The notes under the pieces: model-generated | Told to the model about the DNA's origin: nothing | What the model saw: only the letters and a program-made list of their open reading frames with translations | Database searches by the model: none | Program-made: the position numbers and the translations under genes | Shown here: positions 2,985-13,149 of the stretch, piece after piece | How the letters are laid out: each line of letters starts with the position of its first letter | Position numbering within the stretch: position 1 is the stretch's first letter | IMG/VR virus record: IMGVR_UViG_3300046004_002451 | Location: 1-55,136 of that record | Source of the DNA: a virus | Lineage: Duplodnaviria > Caudoviricetes | DNA length: 55,136 nt | Strand: one strand, 5' to 3'

Positions 2985-3739
2985 AAAGCACCCCAAAAGA
3001 ATTTGTCGCCGAATTTCAGCGCCGTGTCGGTCTCGACGATGACGAAGACCCCGGCGAGGACACGTACAATGCGCTCGACCGAGTGTTGCCAAAAAAGCCA
3101 AAGGCGGAGCAACCTGCCCCGGTAGTCATTCCGGCATCACAGGCTGGCGTGATCAACAAACAATCCCCCGCCGAGAAACTGGCCGCGTGCATCATTGCTG
3201 AAGCCAAACGCTTCTGCGGTTTGCAGGAAGTCCGGCCAAACCAGAACTGGGACAACCCTGCCACCAAAGGGCCGGACACTGCGCTCGTCGCTGAACTCAT
3301 CGCAGGAATGCGCCAGTCACCTTGGGAGCCAGGTTGGGCATACTGCGCGGCATTTGCCGAGTCGATGGCTGCGAAGGGGCTTGAGCAATTCGGTGCGACT
3401 CCTGCGCAGATTGCCAAGTTCCGGTCGGTAATGTCTCCGCACTGCATGACCTCTGCTGCGGCATTTGCGCGCCTCAACCTGTTGTCATCCGTCCCGGTGT
3501 CTGGTGCTATCTGGTTGGCTCAACATGGCAGTTCGGACAACGGCCATGCGGGAATCTGCACGCTGCCGCACGCTCCGAACATGGACACCATCGAGGCCAA
3601 CACGGGCGGCAACGGCAGCGGTAGCCAGCGCGAAGGCGATTGGATCACCCACAAAATCCGGCCCATCGCTGGTCCAGGAGATCTGCATACCCGCGGGTTT
3701 GTGCATCCTGTTGCTATATTGAAAATCTGCGGTCTCTAA
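2981..3739 (+). CDS. Endolysin, CHAP-type cysteine amidase/peptidase with N-terminal peptidoglycan-binding-like motif
   Basis: AYCAAF (catalytic Cys), GHAGI (His) and TIEANT motifs; N-terminal FQRRVGL..D...G..TYNAL resembles PG_binding_1. Confidence 0.8.
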   Translation: MKSTPKEFVAEFQRRVGLDDDEDPGEDTYNALDRVLPKKPKAEQPAPVVIPASQAGVINKQSPAEKLAACIIAEAKRFCGLQEVRPNQNWDNPATKGPDTALVAELIAGMRQSPWEPGWAYCAAFAESMAAKGLEQFGATPAQIAKFRSVMSPHCMTSAAAFARLNLLSSVPVSGAIWLAQHGSSDNGHAGICTLPHAPNMDTIEANTGGNGSGSQREGDWITHKIRPIAGPGDLHTRGFVHPVAILKICGL

Positions 3740-3770
3740 TTCTTTCCCGAAAAACCCAAAAAACCACCCC

Positions 3771-4673
3771 ATGAAAACTAACATACTCCTCCTCATTGCC
3801 TGCCTATTTTGGTCCGGCACACTCCTGGCGCAGCTCACCACTGCCAATATCACTGATAATCCGCGAGGCATTGCCTATGCCGCCCAGGTCGAATCAGTGA
3901 GCGGCAACTACACCGTCACAAGTCGCGACCACACTATCCTGGCTGATGCCACGTCCGCGGCCATCACGATTACTCTGCTGCCGGCAAAAGCTCGGTATCA
4001 GGTCATCAATGTCAAAAAGTCGGATGTCTCTGCCAATACAGTGACCGTCTCGGCCTCGAATAGTCAAACTATCGACGGCGCGCCAACGATTGTCCTCACT
4101 GGGCAGCACCAAAATGTCACTCTGCAATCCACAGGATTGGGTTGGAATCTCATCAGTCCAAATGTGAGTGTAGTTCGCAAAATCTCGCTTGGCGCTCCGC
4201 GCGATGACGAAACGAATAGGGCAGTTACATCGACAACCATGCGCGCGAGCACCTACACCATTGTCAACCAGCCGGACGTGCCGCGTAATGTTACCCTGAC
4301 TCAAACTACAGTAGCCGGCGCAGACACTCTTGGTACTGTGGTTATCGTTGGCACAGATTACCGAGGTAATGCCCTGACTGAGACTTTGACACCGGTGGCA
4401 GGAACTCTTGTCACTGGCACAAAGGTCTTCAAAACCGTAACCAGTCTCACTGGTGTGGGTTGGGTTGCTACCAGCACAGCCGATAATATAGTCATTGGTT
4501 ACGGCGCCCTCATTGGGCTGCCTGTGACTCTGCCGGCGGCAGGCACCGCACTCGGAACCCTGGACACAGTTGTGGCGGTCAAAGTGACGACGGGCGGCAC
4601 TCTCGCAACCTCAGCAGTCACCGAAGCCGGTGGTGATGGGTCTAAATTGCTCGTGGTTTATGTCAATCAGTGA
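3771..4673 (+). CDS. Thr/Val-rich beta-protein with signal-peptide-like N-terminus
   Basis: MKTNILLLIACLFWSGTLLA-Q leader; YTVTSRDHTILADATSAAITITL repeat-type domain of virion accessory proteins. Confidence 0.6.
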   Translation: MKTNILLLIACLFWSGTLLAQLTTANITDNPRGIAYAAQVESVSGNYTVTSRDHTILADATSAAITITLLPAKARYQVINVKKSDVSANTVTVSASNSQTIDGAPTIVLTGQHQNVTLQSTGLGWNLISPNVSVVRKISLGAPRDDETNRAVTSTTMRASTYTIVNQPDVPRNVTLTQTTVAGADTLGTVVIVGTDYRGNALTETLTPVAGTLVTGTKVFKTVTSLTGVGWVATSTADNIVIGYGALIGLPVTLPAAGTALGTLDTVVAVKVTTGGTLATSAVTEAGGDGSKLLVVYVNQ

Positions 4674-4699
4674 GTGACGTGACACAACCCTTCAATCTC

Positions 4700-4731
4700 A
4701 AGCCGCTGCCTTACCGGGCAGCGGCTTTTTT
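4700..4731 (+). terminator. Rho-independent terminator overlapping the integrase stop codon
   Basis: AAGCCGCTGCC-ttaccg-GGCAGCGGCTT followed by a T-run, between convergent genes. Confidence 0.8.
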
Positions 4732-5943
4732 CTTTGGGCTGAACGCCTTGTTGAGAGCCTTCGACTTCGTCGCGTCTTCCAGGTGCGTGTAGATCAGGTT
4801 TGTTGCGTCATTTGAGTGACCTGTGATCATGCGCCGGACCTCCGGCGTGACGCCGGCATTGGCGAGCAGGCTGTTGCAGGTGTGTCGGAGGGAGTGGAAC
4901 GTCAGAGAATTGAAGGAGAGCCCCCTACCCTGCCCTTCGACCTTCCGGCCTTTGATGCCGGCGGCCTTGAGGATCTCCGTGAACTGCGTGCTCAGGCCTC
5001 GGTTGCGGGCGGCGTGCACCCCGGCCAATGAGGGGGCGAGGTAAAGTGAATCCGTCGGTTCCTGCCACAACTCCGTCAGATGGCTCGCCAGCGGTCCCAC
5101 GATGGGGATACGCATTTTCTTCTTCGTCTTCCCCTGACTCATCTCCCATATCCATGTGCCGGGCTGCACGACGATTTGCGTGCGTAGGGCGTTCGCGCAG
5201 TCCGTGAGGCGCTGAGAGGTGCAAAGCCCAAGCAGCGTCACCGTAAGCCAGTCACGGCGCTCCGGCTTCGCGCGCAGATGGCTCAGAAGTCGCTCCACCT
5301 CTGCCGGCGTGTAAGGGTCGCGGGTGTTGGAGTTGTTGAGTTCTCGGGAGATGAGATTCACCGGGTTGCGGGTCGCATAGCCTTCGTCACGAGCCCTCTC
5401 GAAGATTGTCGAGATTGTCGAGGCCGCGATATTCATGGTCGTCGGCTTCAGTCCCTCCTCAATGCCGCTCAGATACCAGTTTTGCAGCATCTCACCGGTG
5501 AAGGACCCAAGCGCCAGCTCCACATCTTTTCCCAGCCACTCGGTGAAGTTATTGACGTAGCTCGTGTAGGCCTTCAGGGAGGAAGCGCTGAGCGTCTTTG
5601 GCACCCGCTTGGCAGCCGCCTTGAGCCATGCCTCTGAGTACGACTTCCAGCTTTTTGAGTCCACCACTTCCCTGTGCCCTGCGAGCCGTAGAATGTCATT
5701 GATGACCTCCACCACGAAGTCGCGTGAGATCCTGGCCGCACCGCTGACACCGCCCGCCGCCAGCGATACCCGCTCAAACTCACGAGCGATCTCCAGAGCC
5801 TTGGCCTCGTCTGTGCAGCGTGTCGATTTCATGGCCTGCTTCCACCGCTGCGCCCTTGCATCCCACACCTGAAACACCGCCGAATAGTACAGCGATTTCT
5901 TGCGACGGTAAACCGCTGCGGGTCGGGCGAGGGGCGGGGTCAT
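4711..5943 (-). CDS. int: Phage tyrosine integrase
   Basis: Catalytic R (SQRLTD), K (GKTKK), HSLRH, GHS and Y (IYTH); N-terminal arm-binding-like and SAM-like regions; start taken at MTPPLARP (5943). Confidence 0.92.
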   Translation of the reverse strand: MTPPLARPAAVYRRKKSLYYSAVFQVWDARAQRWKQAMKSTRCTDEAKALEIAREFERVSLAAGGVSGAARISRDFVVEVINDILRLAGHREVVDSKSWKSYSEAWLKAAAKRVPKTLSASSLKAYTSYVNNFTEWLGKDVELALGSFTGEMLQNWYLSGIEEGLKPTTMNIAASTISTIFERARDEGYATRNPVNLISRELNNSNTRDPYTPAEVERLLSHLRAKPERRDWLTVTLLGLCTSQRLTDCANALRTQIVVQPGTWIWEMSQGKTKKKMRIPIVGPLASHLTELWQEPTDSLYLAPSLAGVHAARNRGLSTQFTEILKAAGIKGRKVEGQGRGLSFNSLTFHSLRHTCNSLLANAGVTPEVRRMITGHSNDATNLIYTHLEDATKSKALNKAFSPKKKAAAR

Positions 5944-6238
5944 GGATGTAATAAAATAGCGGCGAGTGATAATGCCCGTGCTAAAGAATGTCAACAAAGA
6001 GAAAACAGCGTAAAACAAGAAATAAAGATGTAAAAGGCTGGAAATAAGCGCCTTACCAACACACTCCAAAACGCTGCAAAGATGTCAAAAACCCCTTAGA
6101 CTCATATAGGAGATGTCTTTTTAAAAGGCTGTTGCCTGGGTAAATGGGGCGTAAATGGCATGGGTGATAATGTAGGTGCTAAATTTGTGACACCCGTTCG
6201 AGTGTTGCAAATATTACATTAGCTCGCATGGTAGCCGG
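5944..6238. other. Candidate attP / divergent promoter region
   Basis: AT-rich non-coding gap next to int with short repeats (AGATGT at 6026, 6080, 6111; TAAAAGGCTG at 6031, 6122; GTGATAATG at 5966, 6164; GTAAATGG at 6140, 6151). Confidence 0.5.
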
Positions 6239-6520
6239 ATGCCTTTCGTGAGCAAGAAGCAGGTGGAGAATTACCACGCGGAGTATCGGCCTGAGTTCCG
6301 GGCCGGGAAGCGGCGCATGGAGCCTGGTGATTTAGCCACGGCTTTGGGCGAACTGCGGGCGCTGCGGGCGCTGGTGCAGAAGCAGCGGAAACGCATCTGG
6401 TTTTTAGAGCACAAGGAGGAAGCCAGCGCAAAGCAGCGCCGCCGGCGGCGGGATGTGCTCGTCCAGGATGCGGCAGCGGCTTTGGCAAATTTGGCAAAAG
6501 AACCCAGGAAAACAAAATGA
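6239..6520 (+). CDS. Hypothetical coiled-coil protein
   Basis: 93 aa ORF, ATGA-coupled to the next gene. Confidence 0.6.
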   Translation: MPFVSKKQVENYHAEYRPEFRAGKRRMEPGDLATALGELRALRALVQKQRKRIWFLEHKEEASAKQRRRRRDVLVQDAAAALANLAKEPRKTK

Positions 6521-7152
6521 GTACAGCTTTATCAATCGAAGTTACCGGTATCAATGCTGATCAGCAGCAAGTCCTCGCTGAAATCCTAGCGGACGTAAAA
6601 GCATCTGTTGATCGGCTTGCCCGAGCGGCCCGCCGATGGGTTGAACTACCTGAGCGCGCGCGCGAAAAGATTATTGAGCAGTCGCCAGCGTCTTTACGTG
6701 AGTTTTGGGGCCGGCTGGAGCGGGTGGGTCTCGGATCGCTCCATCCTCAACTCGCCACTGTAGGTGGCACGGCGGCACGGTTACTGGGTCGGCTGCCTCT
6801 GATTGAGCAGGAGCGCTACCTGCGCGAGCTGGTGCCAGTAGTCGTATCACGCGGCCGGGGATGGGACATCCGGCTGATTGATGTGGCTGAGTTGAGCGAT
6901 GATCAGCGTAAGCAGGTTTTCAAAATTGCTCCTGCCGGCGCCGTAGAGGTCCGGGACGCAGAAATGCAAAAGGCCTGGTTGGCCGATAAAGCCGCGCGGC
7001 GGGTGCTCGCTGAGCAAACTGGGGCAACCCTAAAACGCGTCGAACGGGCCGGGTGGCGCGTTGAGCGTGGCCGGGTATTTGTTAAGGAGGGGCTTCTCGT
7101 AGCAGGTATCACTCGGGCTCAGTTGGAGCGCATGATTGCGGATCTTGAGTAA
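6517..7152 (+). CDS. Hypothetical protein
   Basis: 211 aa ORF with natural composition, coupled to the upstream gene. Confidence 0.7.
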   Translation: MSTALSIEVTGINADQQQVLAEILADVKASVDRLARAARRWVELPERAREKIIEQSPASLREFWGRLERVGLGSLHPQLATVGGTAARLLGRLPLIEQERYLRELVPVVVSRGRGWDIRLIDVAELSDDQRKQVFKIAPAGAVEVRDAEMQKAWLADKAARRVLAEQTGATLKRVERAGWRVERGRVFVKEGLLVAGITRAQLERMIADLE

Positions 7153-7205
7153 CTCGGTGCGTGTTGGTTTGCCCCGAACGGGTGCATGATATGTGGTCAA
7201 TTCGT

Positions 7206-7448
7206 TCAGTGATCTGTACTGTTCAGTATCTTTTTCGCGTAGTCCTCGATATGCCGAGCGGACAGACCCGCATAGGCAATGTATTCGAGAGCATCACGGT
7301 ATTTGTCCCGCTCCTCTGCAAGCACTGCATAACAACTATCTCCGTGCTTCGCTTTTGCGATTTCTGACCACAACTCATCACGTTGTCGGCGCAGATACTC
7401 ACATTCAGATCCTGAACAATTGGATGCAGCACAATTCGCTTCACTCAT
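7206..7448 (-). CDS. Cassette-like hypothetical protein (80 aa)
   Basis: Starts inside the 7412-7468 hairpin; ends ...ILNSTDH across a degenerate core. Confidence 0.7.
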   Translation of the reverse strand: MSEANCAASNCSGSECEYLRRQRDELWSEIAKAKHGDSCYAVLAEERDKYRDALEYIAYAGLSARHIEDYAKKILNSTDH

Positions 7449-7468
7449 GGCTGATCCTTTCCGTTCAG
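7412..7468 (+). repeat. attC-like site (57 bp)
   Basis: CTGAAC-aatt-GGAT[G]CAGC ... GCTGATCC-tttcc-GTTCAG; ATGA stop/start overlap at 7445-7448 inside. Confidence 0.85.
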
Positions 7469-7672
7469 CGATCCATCATCGTGCGATGGTGCCTCGCTCA
7501 GCATGTCTATCATGAGGTTCGTGAGAGTCTCCCACCCAAGCCGCCCCATTCGCAGCGTCAGCAGGGTGCCGTCTTCCAGCGTGTGCTTGATCTGGTATTC
7601 CTGCTCACCGGGCACGGGAGAGCGGCCATTAGCTTCAGGGTGATCGTAGGTTGTGTATGTGAGTTCCTTCAT
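7445..7672 (-). CDS. Cassette-like hypothetical protein (75 aa, MKELTYTT...)
   Basis: ATG at 7672; ends SLNGKDQP inside the attC-like site. Confidence 0.7.
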   Translation of the reverse strand: MKELTYTTYDHPEANGRSPVPGEQEYQIKHTLEDGTLLTLRMGRLGWETLTNLMIDMLSEAPSHDDGSLNGKDQP

Positions 7673-7690
7673 AGTCTTGGGTGGTTCGGG

Positions 7691-7781
7691 CTGAACCATG
7701 GCACTGCTGCCAACGGCTCGTAAATATCTGTCATGCTTGCGGCGGCTTCTCGCTCGCCGTCGGCAGAGTTGGTTCGTTCTG
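7691..7781 (+). repeat. attC-like site (91 bp)
   Basis: CTGAAC-catggc-ACT[G]CTGCCaACGGC ... GCCGTcGGCAGAGT-tggttc-GTTCTG. Confidence 0.85.
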
Positions 7782-8126
7782 TGAATTGCGCTCGCGCTCC
7801 ATTTCGGCATCGAGGTCGCTGAAATCAGCGTTGGTTTGCCACACTTCAACGGCGCGACCATTTTCCCATTTTACACGGTAAACTCCCCATTCGTAGCCAT
7901 CGTCATCAAGGTTGCCGTGAGTGCAATCGTGCAACCATTTCATCCGCGCTTCGTATCGTTCTAATTCCACGATGCGCTTGCCAGCATCGAGTAGGAGTTC
8001 GCCGAGCGACTTTCCGACAGACACAGAACCAGCGGATGCAGGCAATGAGCCACGCCTCGGTTTGGTGCATCCAGTCCGGTGGGTCTGCCAAGATTCGCCG
8101 CACACATCACAGTGATAGTAGCTCAT
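7731..8126 (-). CDS. Cassette-like hypothetical protein (131 aa) with N-terminal CxxC
   Basis: Begins and ends within attC-like hairpins; ATGA overlaps at both ends. Confidence 0.7.
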   Translation of the reverse strand: MSYYHCDVCGESWQTHRTGCTKPRRGSLPASAGSVSVGKSLGELLLDAGKRIVELERYEARMKWLHDCTHGNLDDDGYEWGVYRVKWENGRAVEVWQTNADFSDLDAEMERERNSQNEPTLPTASEKPPQA

Positions 8127-8146
8127 GCCTGATCCTTTCCGTTCGG
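8024..8146 (+). repeat. attC-like site (123 bp)
   Basis: CAGAAC-cagc-GGAT[G]CAGGCA[A]TGAGC ... GCTCATGCCTGATCC-tttcc-GTTCGG; two extrahelical bases; shares the 16-mer CTGATCCTTTCCGTTC with the 7412 site. Confidence 0.9.
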
Positions 8147-8437
8147 CGGAAGTTGCAGGCTCTCGAATACCTCGTCCTTGGCATATCCAATCTGACGCTC
8201 CCGCCTGCCGTGCAGCGAGCGTTCAGCAATGTATTTCACGACTCCGGTTTTCCAGCGTAGCAGTTCAATGATCTTCCAACCCGCCAGCATGTTGATCGAG
8301 GTGATGACGTTGTTCACAAAGTCGAGGTGACTTTTCTCTGCTGCGACACGTTGCGCGTATTCCCACTCCGCCGAACAATTCTGCTGCTGGACAACAGAGC
8401 GGGGCTTTGTGGTATCATCGAGTTGATTCTGATTCAT
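8123..8437 (-). CDS. Cassette-like hypothetical protein (104 aa)
   Basis: N-terminal ...QQQNCSA half-site signature; C-terminal PPNGKDQA. Confidence 0.7.
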   Translation of the reverse strand: MNQNQLDDTTKPRSVVQQQNCSAEWEYAQRVAAEKSHLDFVNNVITSINMLAGWKIIELLRWKTGVVKYIAERSLHGRRERQIGYAKDEVFESLQLPPNGKDQA

Positions 8438-8450
8438 GATTTTGACTCAT

Positions 8451-8675
8451 TCATAGTGGATAGCGATGCGAGCATCGTGGGCAATCAAAGGCTCCGTAGT
8501 CACCCCAGCCTTTCCAGAAAGATTCCCACCACGTCGCCTCCGTGCGGTATGTGGTTTCCCATTCGCCGCAGCTTGGGCAGTGCCACGGGAAATAATCTCC
8601 ACGCTGCGACAAATCGCGGCAAGCTGAACCATGTGCTGTTCCCAATTCGGAGGGCGGTGATGTCGTAGGTGTCAT
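8451..8675 (-). CDS. Small double-CxxC zinc-ribbon protein (74 aa)
   Basis: WHCPSCG...FDCPRCS; AAAGGAG RBS upstream, inside the hairpin loop. Confidence 0.75.
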   Translation of the reverse strand: MTPTTSPPSELGTAHGSACRDLSQRGDYFPWHCPSCGEWETTYRTEATWWESFWKGWGDYGAFDCPRCSHRYPL

Positions 8676-8719
8676 GGTTGCTCCTTTCCGCCCTCCTCAT
8701 GGGAGAGCGAAGCGCTCTG
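8624..8719 (+). repeat. attC-like site (96 bp) with mutated R' core
   Basis: CTGAAC-catgt-GCT[G]tTCCCA[A]TtcGGAGGGCGG ... CCGCCCTCCtcATGGGAgAGC-gaagc-GCTCTG (GTT changed to GCT). Confidence 0.8.
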
Positions 8720-8721
8720 GA

Positions 8722-8928
8722 CTACGCTTCATCTGTTTCCGGCGCGGGTTTGAAGTCACCATCCGCGTCACAGTGAACGGGCGGCCATCCGTTCCGCTTG
8801 ATGTCCAAGTGCCGCAGCAGCCTTTTGAGCGGGTGGCAGATGATTTGCCGCGTGGCTTCGCAGACGGTGTAGAGCATGAAAAATGAGATGAAGGGATGCT
8901 CCATCATGAAGGGTAAGAGGTCTTTCAT
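8722..8928 (-). CDS. Small membrane-associated hypothetical protein (68 aa, MKDLLPFM...)
   Basis: Hydrophobic N-terminal half; C-terminal GWPPVHCDADGDFK motif. Confidence 0.7.
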   Translation of the reverse strand: MKDLLPFMMEHPFISFFMLYTVCEATRQIICHPLKRLLRHLDIKRNGWPPVHCDADGDFKPAPETDEA

Positions 8929-8938
8929 TTTGTCGTGT

Positions 8939-9511
8939 TCATGGTAGTTTTGCGCTCGCCGTCGCCTGATCCGGGGCGTTCGCCAGCCGCAGCAGCACGT
9001 CCGCATGGCAAGCCGTCCCATTCTTGCACCAGCACGCTAGATTCTTGCCACACAGAGTTTTCAGATTGTCCAGCATCCACTGCTTTCGCTCGGGTATTCC
9101 AGCGGTAACGCCTTCGACCGTGAGCCATGTTTGGAATGCGCCGACGGCGAGGATTTGCGGCCGCTCCGGTGTGACCTTGAACGGGTTACCCCACTTCGAA
9201 GGCCGCGAGACCACGACTGTATTCGGTGGCAGTTTCGCGCCTGCCTTCCTGGAGAGTTGCACACGATGCGGCATAGCTTGAGCAGGTAGTGGTAGAGGTA
9301 TAAAGTCATCAGCAGGTAGGCCAGGCTGATATTGTTTTGGCGGATTCATCAGCCTTCGGCGCGCCCGGTCGCACATTGGAAACCATGCCACTCGCGGGTA
9401 GTCGAAGAGCCATTGAGCAGCATGGTTCCTTTCGGCGCAGCCTTCGGACACACACAGCACCACTGACCCAGCGTCAGGAGTCAACCGCTCTGGAGTATCG
9501 TTTGTATTCAT
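8939..9511 (-). CDS. DUF4326 domain protein
   Basis: VSRPSKWGNPF ... LCGKNLACWC...CHADVLLRLAN; ATG at 9511 overlaps the upstream stop. Confidence 0.85.
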   Translation of the reverse strand: MNTNDTPERLTPDAGSVVLCVSEGCAERNHAAQWLFDYPRVAWFPMCDRARRRLMNPPKQYQPGLPADDFIPLPLPAQAMPHRVQLSRKAGAKLPPNTVVVSRPSKWGNPFKVTPERPQILAVGAFQTWLTVEGVTAGIPERKQWMLDNLKTLCGKNLACWCKNGTACHADVLLRLANAPDQATASAKLP

Positions 9512-9552
9512 TGGCGGCATTGGTTCGCTGGTGAGTCAGCCTTTACGTTCGG
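9463..9552 (+). repeat. attC-like site (90 bp), degenerate
   Basis: CTGACC...GGAGTCA[A]CCGC ... GCTGGTGAGTCAGCC-tttac-GTTCGG; R'' AAC changed to ACC; ATGA overlap at 9508-9511 inside. Confidence 0.6.
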
Positions 9553-9807
9553 CTTACACAGTGAGATCACCGCCAGTTGCTCCATCTTCACGGAGTTCTG
9601 CACGCCATCAAAAACAGCGTCCCGAAGGAGGCAGGCTTTTGCCACGGAGAGCGCCGTGCGATTGGCCGGAGTGTCTTCAACTTGCACCACCATTCGCAGG
9701 AGGCATATCGGCAGTGGCACGGAAGCCGACCCCAGCACTGGTGCCAATCGCCGGGGCTTTTGGCCTTTGGTCGCTTTCTTCTTCAATGGTGTCTTTTTGG
9801 TCTTCAT
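9508..9807 (-). CDS. Cassette-like hypothetical protein (99 aa)
   Basis: RRLAPVLGSA N-terminal and KPNVKADSP C-terminal hairpin-encoded peptides. Confidence 0.7.
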   Translation of the reverse strand: MKTKKTPLKKKATKGQKPRRLAPVLGSASVPLPICLLRMVVQVEDTPANRTALSVAKACLLRDAVFDGVQNSVKMEQLAVISLCKPNVKADSPANQCRQ

Positions 9808-9854
9808 GAATCAGTCGTGGTTAGTCCGGCGGTCGGCAAAGTTGTTTCGTTCGC
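9726..9854 (+). repeat. attC-like site (129 bp)
   Basis: CCGACC-ccagc-ACT[G]gTGCCaAtCGCCGG ... CCGGCGgTcGGCAaAGT-tgtttc-GTTCGC; ATGA overlap at 9804-9807 inside. Confidence 0.75.
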
Positions 9855-10115
9855 CCTTCCAGTTGCCATGCGACTCGCCTCCTGAATTGCCACCATCAAG
9901 TCAGCAGCGATGCAATGAGCTTCTTCGATGGATATTCCATGATCCACGGTGCGGAGCTTCCAATCCGCGCTGGTTGTGTCCCAAGACACGGTTCGCAGGT
10001 AAATTTTCCCGTATTTGTTCACAAATGCCCCGTTCTTGGGCGAACAAGACGCAGCACGCGCCGCGCCGCACTCCTCGGTTTTCTCAGGCTTCAATTCTTC
10101 GTTTTCGTTTGGCAT
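9804..10115 (-). CDS. Cassette-like hypothetical protein (103 aa)
   Basis: ARAASCSP and RANETTLPT signatures. Confidence 0.7.
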   Translation of the reverse strand: MPNENEELKPEKTEECGAARAASCSPKNGAFVNKYGKIYLRTVSWDTTSADWKLRTVDHGISIEEAHCIAADLMVAIQEASRMATGRANETTLPTAGLTTTDS

Positions 10116-10144
10116 AGATTTCAGACTTGGGGCATTCGATTCTT

Positions 10145-10615
10145 CTACTCATGGTCGTTCGGCTTACGGCATGGCATCCACTGGCCTATGGGGTCATGTA
10201 TCGCCCACATTCGGAGCGTTCGACCTCCCCATGACTGATACTCCACATCGTAGGCGGCAAGGTGTGGTGGCTCGCTAGGGTATCCCTCCGCGAAGTCCAC
10301 AATTCGGACCATGCGCCATTCCTGATTGGGATATTTACGCCACCAGTAGAATCCAGCCATATCAGGCAAAGCCGAACTACGTGATGCTTGTATGGAGCAA
10401 TCTTGGCATTGGAAAAGGCGTTCCTTCTTGGAACGTGGATCAAGGGGGTGCGGACTGCAGTTCATCGTGCATTCCTTTGTTTTCGGATCAAACTTTTCCA
10501 ACTCGGCCGGGTCTGATTTTGGCCAGCTCTTCAAGCTAGAATGTTGCGTGAAAGGGTTGCAGACTCCACACAAGTCCGCGGGCCGCCCGTGCTTACAGAT
10601 TAAGTTCATGGCCAT
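10145..10615 (-). CDS. Cys-rich hypothetical protein, two-part fusion
   Basis: MAMNLICKHG..C..C N-terminal part; LPDMAGFYWWR domain after the SRSSA half-site; ends KPNDHE. Confidence 0.7.
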   Translation of the reverse strand: MAMNLICKHGRPADLCGVCNPFTQHSSLKSWPKSDPAELEKFDPKTKECTMNCSPHPLDPRSKKERLFQCQDCSIQASRSSALPDMAGFYWWRKYPNQEWRMVRIVDFAEGYPSEPPHLAAYDVEYQSWGGRTLRMWAIHDPIGQWMPCRKPNDHE

Positions 10616-10628
10616 AGTTTCTTTGAGC

Positions 10629-11255
10629 TTATTTGGCAAAGTGATTGCGCCATTCTCCTGCGCTCGCGCGCTGTTGTTGTAATGTGGCCAGTTGGGCGCC
10701 GTTGCGCAGCGCGCTGCAGTGCTTTCCAACTGTGACATCATAATAAGGGGGTGCCCCCCGGTGATAGGTGTTGGTGCGGAGATGCAAGCAGCCTACAGCG
10801 AAGGCGTGCAGTAAGTCCTCATTGGCATGTCCTGGGTCAGTGTAGAGTCGGGCAATACCGGCTCGGAACGCGGGTATCTGCGGGTCACTCGGCTTGGGTG
10901 GTGCCAGTTCAGTGAGGTAAAACCGTGGATATGGGAAGTCGATGGCCGCGAGCGTCTCGGCATCGCTACGTATGAAGCGGTCGATAAAGTCCGTCACCGG
11001 CGCCCATCCCACCCATTGCCGGCTCCACGGTTGGTCATCGACCCACACGAGGTAAGAGGCGGATACCGCCTGCATCTGCTTGCCGGCGTGCTCGCCCACC
11101 GGCATGAAGCTGGAGGGCATCAGCACTCGGTCATGGCCGGGCCGGAAATATGGCACTCCATGCTGCTTGTGGAGTTTGGTGGGGTCTTGTGGCGCTGTAC
11201 GCCAGAAGCGCTCTTTGCGCGCGGCTTCATTGGAGGGTGCCCAGTTTGTGCTCAT
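10629..11255 (-). CDS. DUF3820-like plus DUF4031-like fusion protein
   Basis: MPVGEHAGKQMQAVSASYLVW (MPFGKHKG-type motif) and LHAFA....PYYDVT..K...ALRNGA. Confidence 0.6.
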   Translation of the reverse strand: MSTNWAPSNEAARKERFWRTAPQDPTKLHKQHGVPYFRPGHDRVLMPSSFMPVGEHAGKQMQAVSASYLVWVDDQPWSRQWVGWAPVTDFIDRFIRSDAETLAAIDFPYPRFYLTELAPPKPSDPQIPAFRAGIARLYTDPGHANEDLLHAFAVGCLHLRTNTYHRGAPPYYDVTVGKHCSALRNGAQLATLQQQRASAGEWRNHFAK

Positions 11256-11275
11256 AAATCGTTGAGGTATGGGTG

Positions 11276-12169
11276 CTAGACCAGCGGCAGCGCGGTGGCT
11301 TGGGTAAATCCTGCGGCACAAGGGTGCCCCCCACCGCCGGCGCTCATATCTGCGGCAACGTTATGGACCGGTGTGCCGTTTTTCCGCGAGCGTAGAGAGT
11401 AAACAAATTCACCGGTGCCGGGTTTCACGAACCACGAGGCGCTAAATGGTGCCTGCGGGTAGGTTTCCAACAGTAAGTTACACGCATCAGAAATAAGTTC
11501 ACTCGCCAGTCCATTTACCGCTGGGATCTTGCCCTGAGGGAATTGAAGCCAATGGCAATTTGCTGCGGCGGCCGCGATGATGGTAGCGTCCACGGACCTC
11601 AACCGTTGCCCAATGGCAATCACTGCGGCCAGTTCCTCATCGGTGCTAAGTATTAGCCGGCGCCAATCATCAAAATTGCGCGGTGTGACGCGCATGAGTG
11701 CGGCGTGCAGATTGAGTGAGTCGGCGCTGTCAGCGTGCGTTGGCTCTTGCCACGCAATGCCCCTGTCACGGTGAGAGATGAGGGTAACGGCGAGTGGCAC
11801 CGAGTTATCGAAATAGTGTTTCCACGCCAATTCAGCGCCAGAAGCAGTTTTGTCATAGACGCTTTCAAAAATGGGCACATTCGAGGTCACGTCATATTTG
11901 TGGGTTACCTCTGCCCCACCTGAATGGTGGTCGATGACGGTGACATACACTGCTCCCTCGAACTCATCACGCACAGTCAGCAATGTTGAAAGTGGGGGGG
12001 TATAGTCGAGGTAGGTGAGGGTATCACCGGCGGCGAGTCCTGGCGGTCGCTGAATAACATCGCCGTATTGTATCGGGTAGAATGCGGCGGGCTCGGTGAG
12101 AGCCTGCCTGGAGATAGTAGCGGCGGCAAAGCCGTCAGCGCAGTTAGCGTGGTAAAGTACGTGGTGCAT
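11276..12169 (-). CDS. DHH/DHHA1 phosphoesterase (nanoRNase NrnB-like)
   Basis: YHANCADG, YLDY, IDHH, SGAELAW, YSLRS and GGGGHPCAAGF motifs. Confidence 0.9.
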   Translation of the reverse strand: MHHVLYHANCADGFAAATISRQALTEPAAFYPIQYGDVIQRPPGLAAGDTLTYLDYTPPLSTLLTVRDEFEGAVYVTVIDHHSGGAEVTHKYDVTSNVPIFESVYDKTASGAELAWKHYFDNSVPLAVTLISHRDRGIAWQEPTHADSADSLNLHAALMRVTPRNFDDWRRLILSTDEELAAVIAIGQRLRSVDATIIAAAAANCHWLQFPQGKIPAVNGLASELISDACNLLLETYPQAPFSASWFVKPGTGEFVYSLRSRKNGTPVHNVAADMSAGGGGHPCAAGFTQATALPLV

Positions 12170-12492
12170 CAGATTGAAAAGAGGATTTGTGTGACTCGAA
12201 GTTTTGTTTTGGTCGTGCGGCCGCCCTTTGGGCCTTCGCCTTCCGTGGTTTGTAGTTTTGCCAGAATCGTGACGAGGGCGCCGGCTTGGAGTTTTTTGAG
12301 CGATTCGGCCTGTCCGCCATGTGCCACGAGGCCTAGCATATTGTCCCGAGTCCGCCTGACACCATCAGCCCCGGTCCATTCTTCATGGTTTGCCAGGCTG
12401 GCGGTGCAGTACGGCCGGTTGGAGTCATCGAGTTTGTATTCCGGCGCCGTGATGAGCCGGCCCTCGATAATTGCAGTGTTGAGGTGGCTCAT
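12169..12492 (-). CDS. ssb: Single-stranded DNA-binding protein (OB fold only)
   Basis: LNTAIIEGRL...PEYK and LQAGALVTI; lacks the acidic C-terminal tail. Confidence 0.8.
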   Translation of the reverse strand: MSHLNTAIIEGRLITAPEYKLDDSNRPYCTASLANHEEWTGADGVRRTRDNMLGLVAHGGQAESLKKLQAGALVTILAKLQTTEGEGPKGGRTTKTKLRVTQILFSI

Positions 12493-12773
12493 GTAGTTGG
12501 GAAAAGGTTGTCGGTGATGAGAAGATTGAGATAAACAATGCCACGCTCAGTAATCTGGTAAGTCGGGTCTTTGCCCGGATCTGCGAGGGTAACCAGTCCA
12601 TGCTTAACAAGTTGGCCAAGTGGAGAACTGCGAAAGGTTTTTCGTAACTCGGTGATGGAGATTGGGCGCCCGGCCGAAAAGCCTCTGAGCATAAGGTTGG
12701 CATCCCCGCCGCATCCCCGGAGAAGATGCGGCCATTTGTTGAGCCGGCTCTGTATGAGAGATTGAGAGGCCAT
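12489..12773 (-). CDS. Winged-helix DNA-binding protein
   Basis: LVKHGLV...YQITERGIVYL wing motif. Confidence 0.65.
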   Translation of the reverse strand: MASQSLIQSRLNKWPHLLRGCGGDANLMLRGFSAGRPISITELRKTFRSSPLGQLVKHGLVTLADPGKDPTYQITERGIVYLNLLITDNLFPTT

Positions 12774-12774
12774 G

Positions 12775-13149
12775 TTAATAAGCAGGGAAGGTTATTTCAC
12801 GACCTGTCTCCATTTCAAAGCGCCGGAAGGCTGCCTCCAGTCGGTTTACACGATCGTCCAAAGTAAGCACCTCGGGTTCTTTGTACTTCTCAATGCCGGC
12901 AGCCTCGCGGCTGGTTTGGAGATTAGTGGGCGTAATATCGAAGCCGAGATCCTTGGCGGCTTGGATTGCGAGCGCTGCATCGGTTAAGTTTTCGGCCTCA
13001 GCGATATGCTCCGCGAGCCACCCGAAAAGAAGAAACTGCTGGCGTTTATTGTGGCCAACTCGCACCGGCACTGGCGCCAATGGTGTAGTTGGTATTTCCA
13101 CGGGTGTCAGGTTGAGGTCGGGAGTAGTTGGCGTGTTAGTATCTTCCAT
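12775..13149 (-). CDS. Hypothetical protein
   Basis: 124 aa ORF tightly packed in the early operon. Confidence 0.7.
   Translation of the reverse strand: MEDTNTPTTPDLNLTPVEIPTTPLAPVPVRVGHNKRQQFLLFGWLAEHIAEAENLTDAALAIQAAKDLGFDITPTNLQTSREAAGIEKYKEPEVLTLDDRVNRLEAAFRRFEMETGREITFPAY

Follow-up and report, generated by a model that had tools for sequence, protein, structure and literature searches.

In integrons, crossovers occur at the R' box only, between G and TT (G/TT). The attC sites have only three conserved nucleotides, and it is their bottom strand that recombines (Loot et al., 2017, PMC5371416). Clusters of at least two attC sites within 4 kb and without an integron integrase are known as CALINs (clusters of attC sites lacking integron integrases), and the mechanism by which cassettes are created has been called unknown (Cury et al., 2016, PMC4889954). 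In phages, both temperate and virulent, 17 CALINs have been described, and five of the six phage attC sites tested recombined with attI1 under IntI1 (Qi et al., 2023, PMC9892861). Here we analyze a row of attC-like hairpins and the small genes among them at 7.2-10.2 kb of the window, by which we mean the whole of the viral record IMGVR_UViG_3300046004_002451 (Caudoviricetes; 55,136 bases, linear, about 90% complete).

The row resembles integron attC sites and CALINs in having imperfect hairpins with R'', L'', L' and R' repeats, an unpaired spacer, bulges and a variable loop, in site lengths of 59-131 nt that lie inside the 57-141 bp range, and in AAC/GTT as the only invariant part. As in a CALIN, the sites are co-oriented, lie 258-833 bp apart and have no adjoining integron integrase. 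Unlike integron attC sites, they have R boxes of the form GAAC/GTTC and not RYYYAAC/GTTRRRY, and their scores with canonical models are sub-threshold. Unlike in integron cassettes, the genes are on the strand opposite to the attC top strand, their overlap with the sites is in frame, and breakpoints are found at both R boxes.

Toxin-antitoxin cassettes with their own promoter are often backward. Those of chromosomal integrons resemble the genes described here in that their expression is independent of the integron promoter Pc (Richard et al., 2024, PMC13108822). However, they are single exceptions in forward arrays, whereas the whole array of the window is backward and is read from a phage operon.

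Arbiol et al. 2010 reportedly described the promoter-early stem-loop (PeSL) motifs of T4-type phages. Like the sites in the window, PeSLs are stem-loop junction motifs between small accessory genes, in hyperplastic regions, that act as exchange points for sequences otherwise unrelated (PMC4122927). Unlike them, PeSLs are composites of promoter and terminator and are thought to work by homologous recombination (PMC4122927), whereas the sites here are attC-like, include a translation start and share a core of only 4-7 nt. The pairing of an early promoter with a terminator-like stem-loop is absent here; the hairpins hold a Shine-Dalgarno (SD) sequence and an ATG, and no sigma-70-like promoter was found on the minus strand of 6-19.5 kb.

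The published phage CALINs include methyltransferase cassettes, and a methyltransferase lies between sites in one of the loci compared here, L058; in contrast to the window, the TJE1 and PH101 arrays run in the same direction as their sites, and a third phage has divergent site directions (PMC9892861). In the literature searched we found no description of uniformly backward cassettes, of sites spanning a stop and a start, of in-frame cores or of phage sites with GAAC cores, although the supplementary tables of Qi et al. (2023, PMC9892861) may hold such cases. Phage-borne attC clusters have already been published (Qi et al., 2023), and the backward, in-frame variant appears to be new. Overall, we consider it rather probable that the 7.2-10.2 kb region is a CALIN-like array of co-oriented attC-type sites of a GAAC-core subclass, holding backward cassettes coupled in frame, which a host integron integrase (IntI) would recombine.

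Structure of the sites and their relation to attC

The initial annotation of this DNA had proposed six complete hairpins with inverted GAAC/GTTC cores, together with degenerate and half sites. We found all six complete hairpins where they had been placed, and the ends given by R3, a covariance model described below, fall within 1 nt of them. The sites are listed here with R3 scores and rough E-values.

7174-7226, plus strand: d1, degenerate terminal site (GAAC...GTTC) after the last gene; no match with models R1-R3; a contig of metagenome run X3 ends at 7226
7411-7469, plus strand: s1, short form of family A; R'' CCTGAAC, R' GTTCAGC; 25.1 bits, E 1.2e-4
7690-7782, plus strand: s2, family B; R'' GCTGAAC, R' GTTCTGT; 26.5 bits, E 4.8e-5
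8023-8147, plus strand: s3, long form of family A; R'' ACAGAAC, R' GTTCGGC; 41.5 bits, E 4.7e-9
8624-8720, plus strand: s4, weak; R'' (G)CTGAAC, degenerate R' GCTCTGG; 12.3 bits, E 0.32
8954-8985, plus strand: right half-site without left arm; L', spacer and R' read GCCTGATCC GGGGC GTTCGCC
9462-9553, plus strand: s5, weak; R'' ACTGACC (mutated core), R' GTTCGGC; 12.3 bits, E 0.33
9725-9855, plus strand: s6, family B; R'' GCCGACC (mutated core), R' GTTCGCC; 15.9 bits, E 0.034
10040-10162, plus strand: d2, degenerate, at the junction of genes j and i; R'' GCGAAC, R' GTTTGGC at 10107 or GTTCGGC at 10156; 11.5 bits, E 0.53, for 10040-10113

The six complete sites, s1 to s6, are 59, 93, 125, 97, 92 and 131 nt long, and two families with both arms in common can be told among them, family A (s1 and s3) and family B (s2 and s6). 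The attC-like architecture that had been claimed, with cores, spacer, extrahelical G and variable loop, is seen in s1 and s3. On the plus strand these two sites read (C)TGAAC or AGAAC, 4 nt, GGAT[G]CAG, loop, CTGATCC, TTTCC and GTTC, with unpaired spacers of 4 and 5 nt. The bulged G of GGAT[G]CAG is in the 5' arm of the plus strand, the same arm as in real attC sites, in which the extrahelical base is mostly C and sometimes G (as in L068). Read on the minus strand, family A is GAAC GGAAA GGATCAG N CATGAG, loop, CTG C ATCC NNNN GTTC, and both short and long loops occur between identical arms. GTT is intact at five of the six complete sites (s4 has GCT) and AAC at four (s5 and s6 have ACC), and the R boxes, (N)NNGAAC and GTTC(A/G/T)NN, are outside the consensus RYYYAAC / GTTRRRY. 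The folds of s1-s4 are more stable than those of dinucleotide shuffles, with z values from -1.7 to -3.8 (on the minus strand, -3.8 for s2 and -3.6 for s4); the single folds of s5, s6, d1 and d2 do not exceed the shuffles in stability.

Between 7174 and 10162 the plus strand holds 27 copies of GTTC, or 9.0 per kb compared to 3.7 per kb elsewhere in the window, and GAAC on the same strand is without enrichment (3.0 vs 2.8 per kb); cores outnumber the recognised sites. A chance origin of the tetramers was considered, since GAAC and GTTC are common and a 12-mer with two mismatches is no rarer than in shuffles, and was rejected on the model and comparative results. The loop of s3 (8030-8126) also encodes a CxxC...H...C peptide, MSY[Y/S]HCDVCGESWQTHRTGC, that is found in L038 as well and forms the N-terminus of two otherwise unrelated proteins, one from the gene c region of the window and one from L038.

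Covariance models of attC were built from integron arrays. Integron integrases were found in 84 of 401 Pseudomonadota genomes, and 20 arrays were taken; model R1 was built from five attC sites of 60-68 nt and model R2 from 46 R1 matches, both from IntI-adjacent Pseudomonadota arrays. R1 and R2 are canonical attC surrogates made here and are distinct from the model of IntegronFinder. Both recover real attC sites of untrained arrays at 16-85 bits, and scores on the wrong strand are far lower than on the right one. In the window (both strands, filters off), the best R1 match is s1 on the plus strand (12.7 bits, E 0.39) and the best R2 match is s3 on the plus strand (13.3 bits, E 0.52), with s1, again on plus, third. 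Because they rank at the top and in the right orientation, the proposed sites are the most attC-like places of the phage, though they score below threshold. One R2 match, at 4682-4739, was rejected as a site, as it is a terminator-like hairpin after the phage integrase gene.

When R2 was run on the loci that carry families A or B, 25 sites reached E<=0.05, distributed over 13 loci of phages or metagenomes. Several of these are in L019, on one strand and with up to 47.3 bits, and matches are also found in L009, L030, L023, L005, L058, L029, L028 and L037. The R2-found sites carry R boxes GCCGAAC...GTTCGGC and make up a GAAC/GTTC-core subclass; in an alignment of 90 matches from the Pseudomonadota arrays, inspected by eye, no GAAC R'' box stands at the start of a row.

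Model R3 was built from these 25 sites, none of which comes from the window and none of which is a family A or B copy. With R3, on the whole window, both strands and with filters off, the seven best matches are the six complete sites and d2, all on the plus strand, and the next-best match has 9.0 bits. The matches to s3, s2 and s1 are significant, s6 is marginal, and s4, s5 and d2 are weak. Thus three sites with E<=1.2e-4 lie within 740 bp and seven matches within 2.7 kb by R3, whereas the canonical surrogates at E<0.1 give no cluster of CALIN type. Of the covariance models run here in place of the IntegronFinder model that the initial annotation had named, R3 supports s3, s2 and s1, and R1 and R2 stay below threshold (12.7 and 13.3 bits, E 0.39-0.52). 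As to the degenerate sites it had named, d2 is among the seven best R3 matches, and d1 has no model match and a single contig end at 7226. One of its half sites, at 8983, is real, with an arm match in L038 and a contig joint, whereas those at 8371 and 10372 have no support in anything run.

R3 scores known IntI-linked Pseudomonadota attC sites at up to 57.7 bits. At E<=1e-3 it finds nothing in three genomes of Chloroflexota, Paracoccus and Rhizobium (about 18 Mb in total), and at E<=1e-6 it has matches in 25 of 151 Verrucomicrobiota and 13 of 151 Pseudomonadota genomes, so R3 is not specific to one phylum. In an alignment of the class (55 matches, 53 of them distinct), which was fitted to the model so that structure is favoured, 91.9% of the alignment cells pair, compared to 65.8% in shuffles and 21-40% with slid partners. 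Changes on both sides are seen in 18 of its 21 pairs. The spacer-proximal pairs A-U and C-G are invariant in 53/53 sequences, and the third pair (A-U) is present in 51/52.

Sites of the same subclass adjoin a true integron integrase. In a Verrucomicrobiales genome, G007, contig C124 encodes an IntI (369.8 bits), and three R3 matches lie upstream of it on the opposite strand, the best with 65.4 bits and boxes GCCGAAC...GTTCGGC, which is ordinary integron geometry. The window sites thus belong to a GAAC/GTTC-core attC subclass that also flanks true integron cassettes in G007. The integrase match itself (G007:C124:4411-5346) holds one in-frame TGA, which could be a pseudogene, a sequencing error or recoding.

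Backward genes and their overlap with the sites

A leftward early operon on the minus strand, which includes genes for SSB, DUF2303 and a replication initiator, runs from about 18.5 kb to 7.2 kb, and its final 3 kb are the attC-like array. As first proposed, the array is at the distal end of this operon, its accessory end, where it adjoins the phage integrase. The genes, delimited by tiling of open reading frames (ORFs) unless stated otherwise, are as follows.

4711-6069, minus strand: phage tyrosine integrase (PF00589, E 3.8e-16)
7206-7448, minus strand: gene a; its stop overlaps a GAAC at d1
7445-7672, minus strand: gene b
7669-7734, minus strand: sORF21, an ORF of 21 codons inside s2, ATGA-coupled to the preceding gene c and the following gene b
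7731-8126, minus strand: gene c
8123-8437, minus strand: gene d
8451-8675, minus strand: gene e; weak zinc-ribbon matches
8722-8928, minus strand: gene f
8939-9511, minus strand: gene g; DUF4326 (Pfam, E 4e-22; phrog_464)
9508-9807, minus strand: gene h
9804-10115, minus strand: gene i
10145-10615, minus strand: gene j; its tail, KPNDHE*, reads through the last GAAC core

Every array gene is antisense to the attC top strand and overlaps the sites; the proposal that the top strand is on plus and the genes are on minus holds for the seven best R3 matches and for every gene. The attC bottom strand, which would fold for recombination, is therefore the mRNA-sense strand. Codon usage was adopted for the strand call, as open-frame length is not decisive on short, GC-rich intervals, and it prefers the minus-strand gene over overlapping plus-strand ORFs in 8 of 9 genes, the exception being gene e. 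A single ORF of 7282 codons (20995-42843, minus strand), used in codon-usage training, makes up 40% of the record and lies between the early region and the portal/terminase block.

The overlap between genes and sites follows a regular pattern, in which a hairpin takes in the end and stop of one gene and the ribosome site, start and leading 12-34 codons of its successor. In family A, the 5' arm, read in the mRNA sense, holds the last six codons and the stop of the upstream gene and the SD sequence and ATG of the next gene, while the 3' arm is within the N-terminal codons of the downstream gene. Thus s1 contains the last 6 codons and stop of b together with the SD sequence, ATG and first 12 codons of a, and s3 contains the tail and stop of d with the SD sequence, ATG and first 34 codons of c. 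In s2 we found the tail and stop of c and the 21-codon ORF, and in s4 the SD sequence, ATG and first 16 codons of e; s5 spans the ATGA junction of h and g, and s6 that of i and h. Stop/start overlaps of the form ATGA occur at six junctions between array genes. Stubs of 4, 11 and 15 codons, like the 21-codon ORF, follow family A sites in L002, L001 and L007.

The cores themselves are in frame. At 6/6 intact R' cores, the upstream gene reads the AAC opposite the GTT in frame, as Asn, and the GTT of R'' is in one fixed frame ([G/C]-Ser) at 6/7 cores (e and i counted by hand), so that exchange at either core would preserve the reading frames. The reading frame of the family A 3' arm is not the same in s1 and L003; it is therefore the nucleotides that are conserved and not the peptide. 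The base before the ATG covaries with its partner in family A copies (T-A, C-G, G-C).

Genes are backward throughout three groups, namely the window, the group of contigs around L003, and L058, and R3 matches are opposite to the gene strand in every phage-type locus compared (these same three). In the L003 group, which encodes a thymidylate synthase and a clamp loader, gene X is open only opposite to the site strand, and its codon differences are 10 silent and 7 changing. L058 encodes a DnaB-like helicase and a methyltransferase and has weak terminase (E 6e-4) and major-head (E 1e-5) matches. The methyltransferase (2994-4037, plus strand of L058) is a DNA methyltransferase with an N-terminal part like a helix-turn-helix protein or antitoxin, and it has an attC-like site on either side. 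In L003, a tRNA-like sequence was seen by eye at 5780-5860, immediately downstream of the region of small genes.

The phage that carries the array is temperate. Its record encodes a portal, large terminase, protease and major head proteins, as well as a replication initiator, SSB and DUF2303 proteins. The phage integrase was rejected as an integron integrase, as it scores 17.8 bits with TIGR02249 against a cut-off of 265 and is of the ordinary phage type. Apart from gene g (DUF4326 / phrog_464), the cassette proteins match no family in Pfam or PHROGs, and we found no paralogy among them beyond short common tails, NGKDQ[PA] (b and d) and NE[PT]TLPTA (c and i). A blastn search of 7000-11000 against GenBank phages gave no match, and no relatives were found among viral contigs through the flanking proteins at 6517-7152 and 11276-12169.

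Most operon genes at 10.7-18.5 kb on the minus strand have C/A-rich leaders without an SD sequence (for example ...CCAACCTTTTCTGCCCA ATG), whereas ribosome sites of the GGAAAGGA type precede several array genes. This contrast suggests a host with few SD sequences and a different origin of the cassettes. On the minus strand of 6-19.5 kb we found no sigma-70-like promoter; the four such sites in this span are all on plus and are fewer than in shuffles, and the promoters of the host may differ.

Copies, junctions and natural variants

An exact family A 23-mer is present in four other viral contigs, and a 19-base form occurs at 42 metagenome loci and 11 genome loci, although many of these 53 loci, those in Rhizobium for example, merely resemble ribosome sites and were excluded on inspection by eye. 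By R3, family A copies were found in 13 other contexts, always opposite to the genes. Among the short-loop copies, at least 9 distinct flanks are seen on the upstream side and at least 6 on the downstream side, and long-loop copies are found in L014, L030 and L038. The copies in L003 and L004 are 85% identical to s1 over 55 nt, and the window has nothing else in common with L001-L004, with no tblastx match at 1e-5. Similarly, L038 has in common with the window just the 126-nt s3, at 89% identity, and both flanks differ. The right half-site of the window matches the right arm of a complete L038 site at 96% identity over 28 nt (8954-8981).

The L003 group is a mosaic, in which pairwise breakpoints reduce to 66 distinct conserved-side ends. 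Reading through the list, we found most of these ends at GAAC(G) or GTTC(G), and about 20 of the approximately 30 ends outside family A are among them. The chance expectation for either tetramer in so small a span is a few per cent. One upstream gene, after ...GCGAACG, leads into three unrelated junctions. Gene content in relatives thus changes at the cores, as the initial annotation had predicted, in the L003 group, in L038 and in contigs from lakes.

L019 is a cassette array in forward orientation, with ORFs on the site strand in 9/10 intervals. The one interval that differs holds a family A site and a backward gene of 53 codons, which together form a unit of about 175 nt between two R' cores, and this unit is co-oriented with the other sites of the array.

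Natural variants of the array were found in lake and freshwater metagenomes. Three runs from three studies hold the array region at fractions of 0.97 (X1), 0.56 (X2) and 0.51 (X3) of sampled words; the contigs of X2-X4 leave parts of 4500-13000 uncovered, and such gaps are not evidence of absence. The joints described here are assembled contigs of other genomes and not observed recombination events. In X1, X2 and X4, a joint runs from 8025 to 8626 and so links the R'' cores of s3 and s4, across six shared letters. Its depth is 1871 in X1 and 890 in X2, compared to about 222 and about 5-10 for the phage. X2 also has a joint from 8043 to 8953, and a weak joint leads from 7714 to 8024. Loose ends of contigs are found at 7226 (from an X3 contig), 7689, 7775, 8024, 8045, 8672, 8719, 8951/8953 (in X4), 9735 and 9826. 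In X1 and X2, contig depth in the bins 7624-8191, 8476-8759 and 9612-9895 is 1.6- to 80-fold above that of the remaining phage; individual cassettes or sites are therefore also carried by at least one much more abundant genome from these lake samples. The body of gene c (7775-8025) thus lies between other sites in a far more abundant genome.

Proposed mechanism and competing explanations

Under the cassette reading, an integron integrase supplied by the host would cut and join cassettes at AA/C of the folded single strand. Breakpoints at both arms would mean that both strands, or both R boxes, can take part in the exchange; they would call for top-strand recombination or for another enzyme. 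The hairpin would also form in the mRNA, where it would cover the SD sequence and the AUG, and translational coupling of the genes is probably its second role. A more tentative extension, possible but doubtful in our view, is that the phages have a cassette economy of their own, in which attC-type hairpins double as translational-coupling joints, gene bodies, which end in an in-frame AAC and start after a GTT of fixed frame, are swapped like exons together with leaders and tails, and units enter bacterial integrons, as in L019. In this extension the recombining strand, being the non-template strand, could be exposed by transcription of the operon, and the accessory regions of phages would be one place where integron cassettes are born.

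Several results weigh against the cassette reading. The canonical R1 and R2 scores of the window sites are sub-threshold and below those of real attC sites in held-out arrays (16-47 bits). With R3, s4, s5 and d2 are not significant and d1 has no match; in addition, the loci that trained R3 were found through motifs from the window's own sites and are a biased sample, and the E-values are rough because the calibration was shortened. Breakpoints are found at R'' as well as at R', which is not expected of an integron integrase confined to bottom strands, and some joints are inside sites (8043, 7714). One gene loss, in the L002 type compared to L003, is a deletion between CGATA microhomologies and is off the cores. 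No integron integrase was found in the whole phage record (TIGR02249 profile, cut-off 265 bits) and no tyrosine recombinase in three site-carrying viral contigs that are 18-54% complete. Relatives of the large terminase (TerL) were found in just 2/401 Verrucomicrobiota genomes, at about 31% identity and with no comparison phylum, and we made no host call from them. Finally, the hairpins are at gene starts, so that their co-orientation with the genes would also follow from a role in RNA. The initial claim that the phage acquires and shuffles accessory genes as integron-type cassettes is thus partly supported: the architecture, the gene orientation, the gene changes at cores and the L019 unit agree with it, and the R'' breakpoints, the phage without IntI and the canonical scores below threshold do not.

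The role in RNA leads to the first alternative, in which the hairpins are RNA elements that sequester the SD sequence and AUG for coupled translation, or are processing sites, while mosaicism arises by homologous or microhomology recombination and the likeness to attC is convergent or ancestral. This would account for the SD sequence and start codon in the stem or internal loop of s1 and s3, for ATGA at six junctions, and for a G-T wobble in the stem of s2 that is tolerated on the mRNA-sense strand only. Many junctions of the L003 group read GAACG, about 12 nt and TCATGA without an obvious hairpin, one gene loss is a microhomology deletion, and junction motifs that act as exchange points have been published before, in the PeSLs (PMC4122927). 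We nevertheless consider this explanation improbable. At many breakpoints just 4-7 nt are shared (GAAC(G)), which is not long enough for homologous recombination, and TCATGA, which is equally conserved, is not a breakpoint. An RNA role would not call for the invariant AAC/GTT. Models trained on IntI-linked attC sites detect these sites with strong strand asymmetry, and the phage-type unit of L019 lies between R' cores of a forward array in the orientation expected from site-specific insertion.

Another explanation is that these are true structure-specific recombination or cleavage sites of a different enzyme, a nuclease or recombinase of the phage or the host, which would recognise GAAC/GTTC at the foot of hairpins or cruciforms and act on both arms. 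Breakpoints at both R'' and R', a phage without IntI, and sites in phage lineages with no detected proteins in common all fit such an enzyme, and a class of site-specific single-strand nucleases is said to exist. However, no candidate enzyme was found, and the same site subclass adjoins a true IntI in G007 with ordinary integron geometry. Moreover, attC top strands recombine with IntI1 at lower rates (PMC9892861), and crossovers at R'' are therefore possible without a new enzyme. We thus rate this explanation as somewhat less probable again.

It is very unlikely that the array is a passive relic, a piece of a bacterial array gained once by illegitimate recombination and now carried without shuffling, for although s4, s5, s6, d1 and d2 have mutated cores or weak scores, one half-site stands alone, and published phage CALINs have been discussed partly in such terms (PMC9892861), backward cassettes, translationally coupled and in frame, are found in the window, the L003 group and L058, which are unrelated to one another, the forward bacterial array of L019 looks different, and near-identical phage variants from lakes already differ at sites.

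We therefore retain recombination of attC-type cassettes by a host IntI as the probable reading. The published phage attC clusters were reported as ordinary cassettes that are carried along, whereas here the sites are woven into phage gene expression, and the same units are found in unrelated phage contigs, in a more abundant lake genome and inside a forward cassette array. If IntI acts on these sites, the accessory regions of phages and bacterial integrons would share one pool of cassettes, and the strand and arm selectivity of attC would be looser in the GAAC-core subclass than in textbook sites. Phages could then also be a source of new cassettes.

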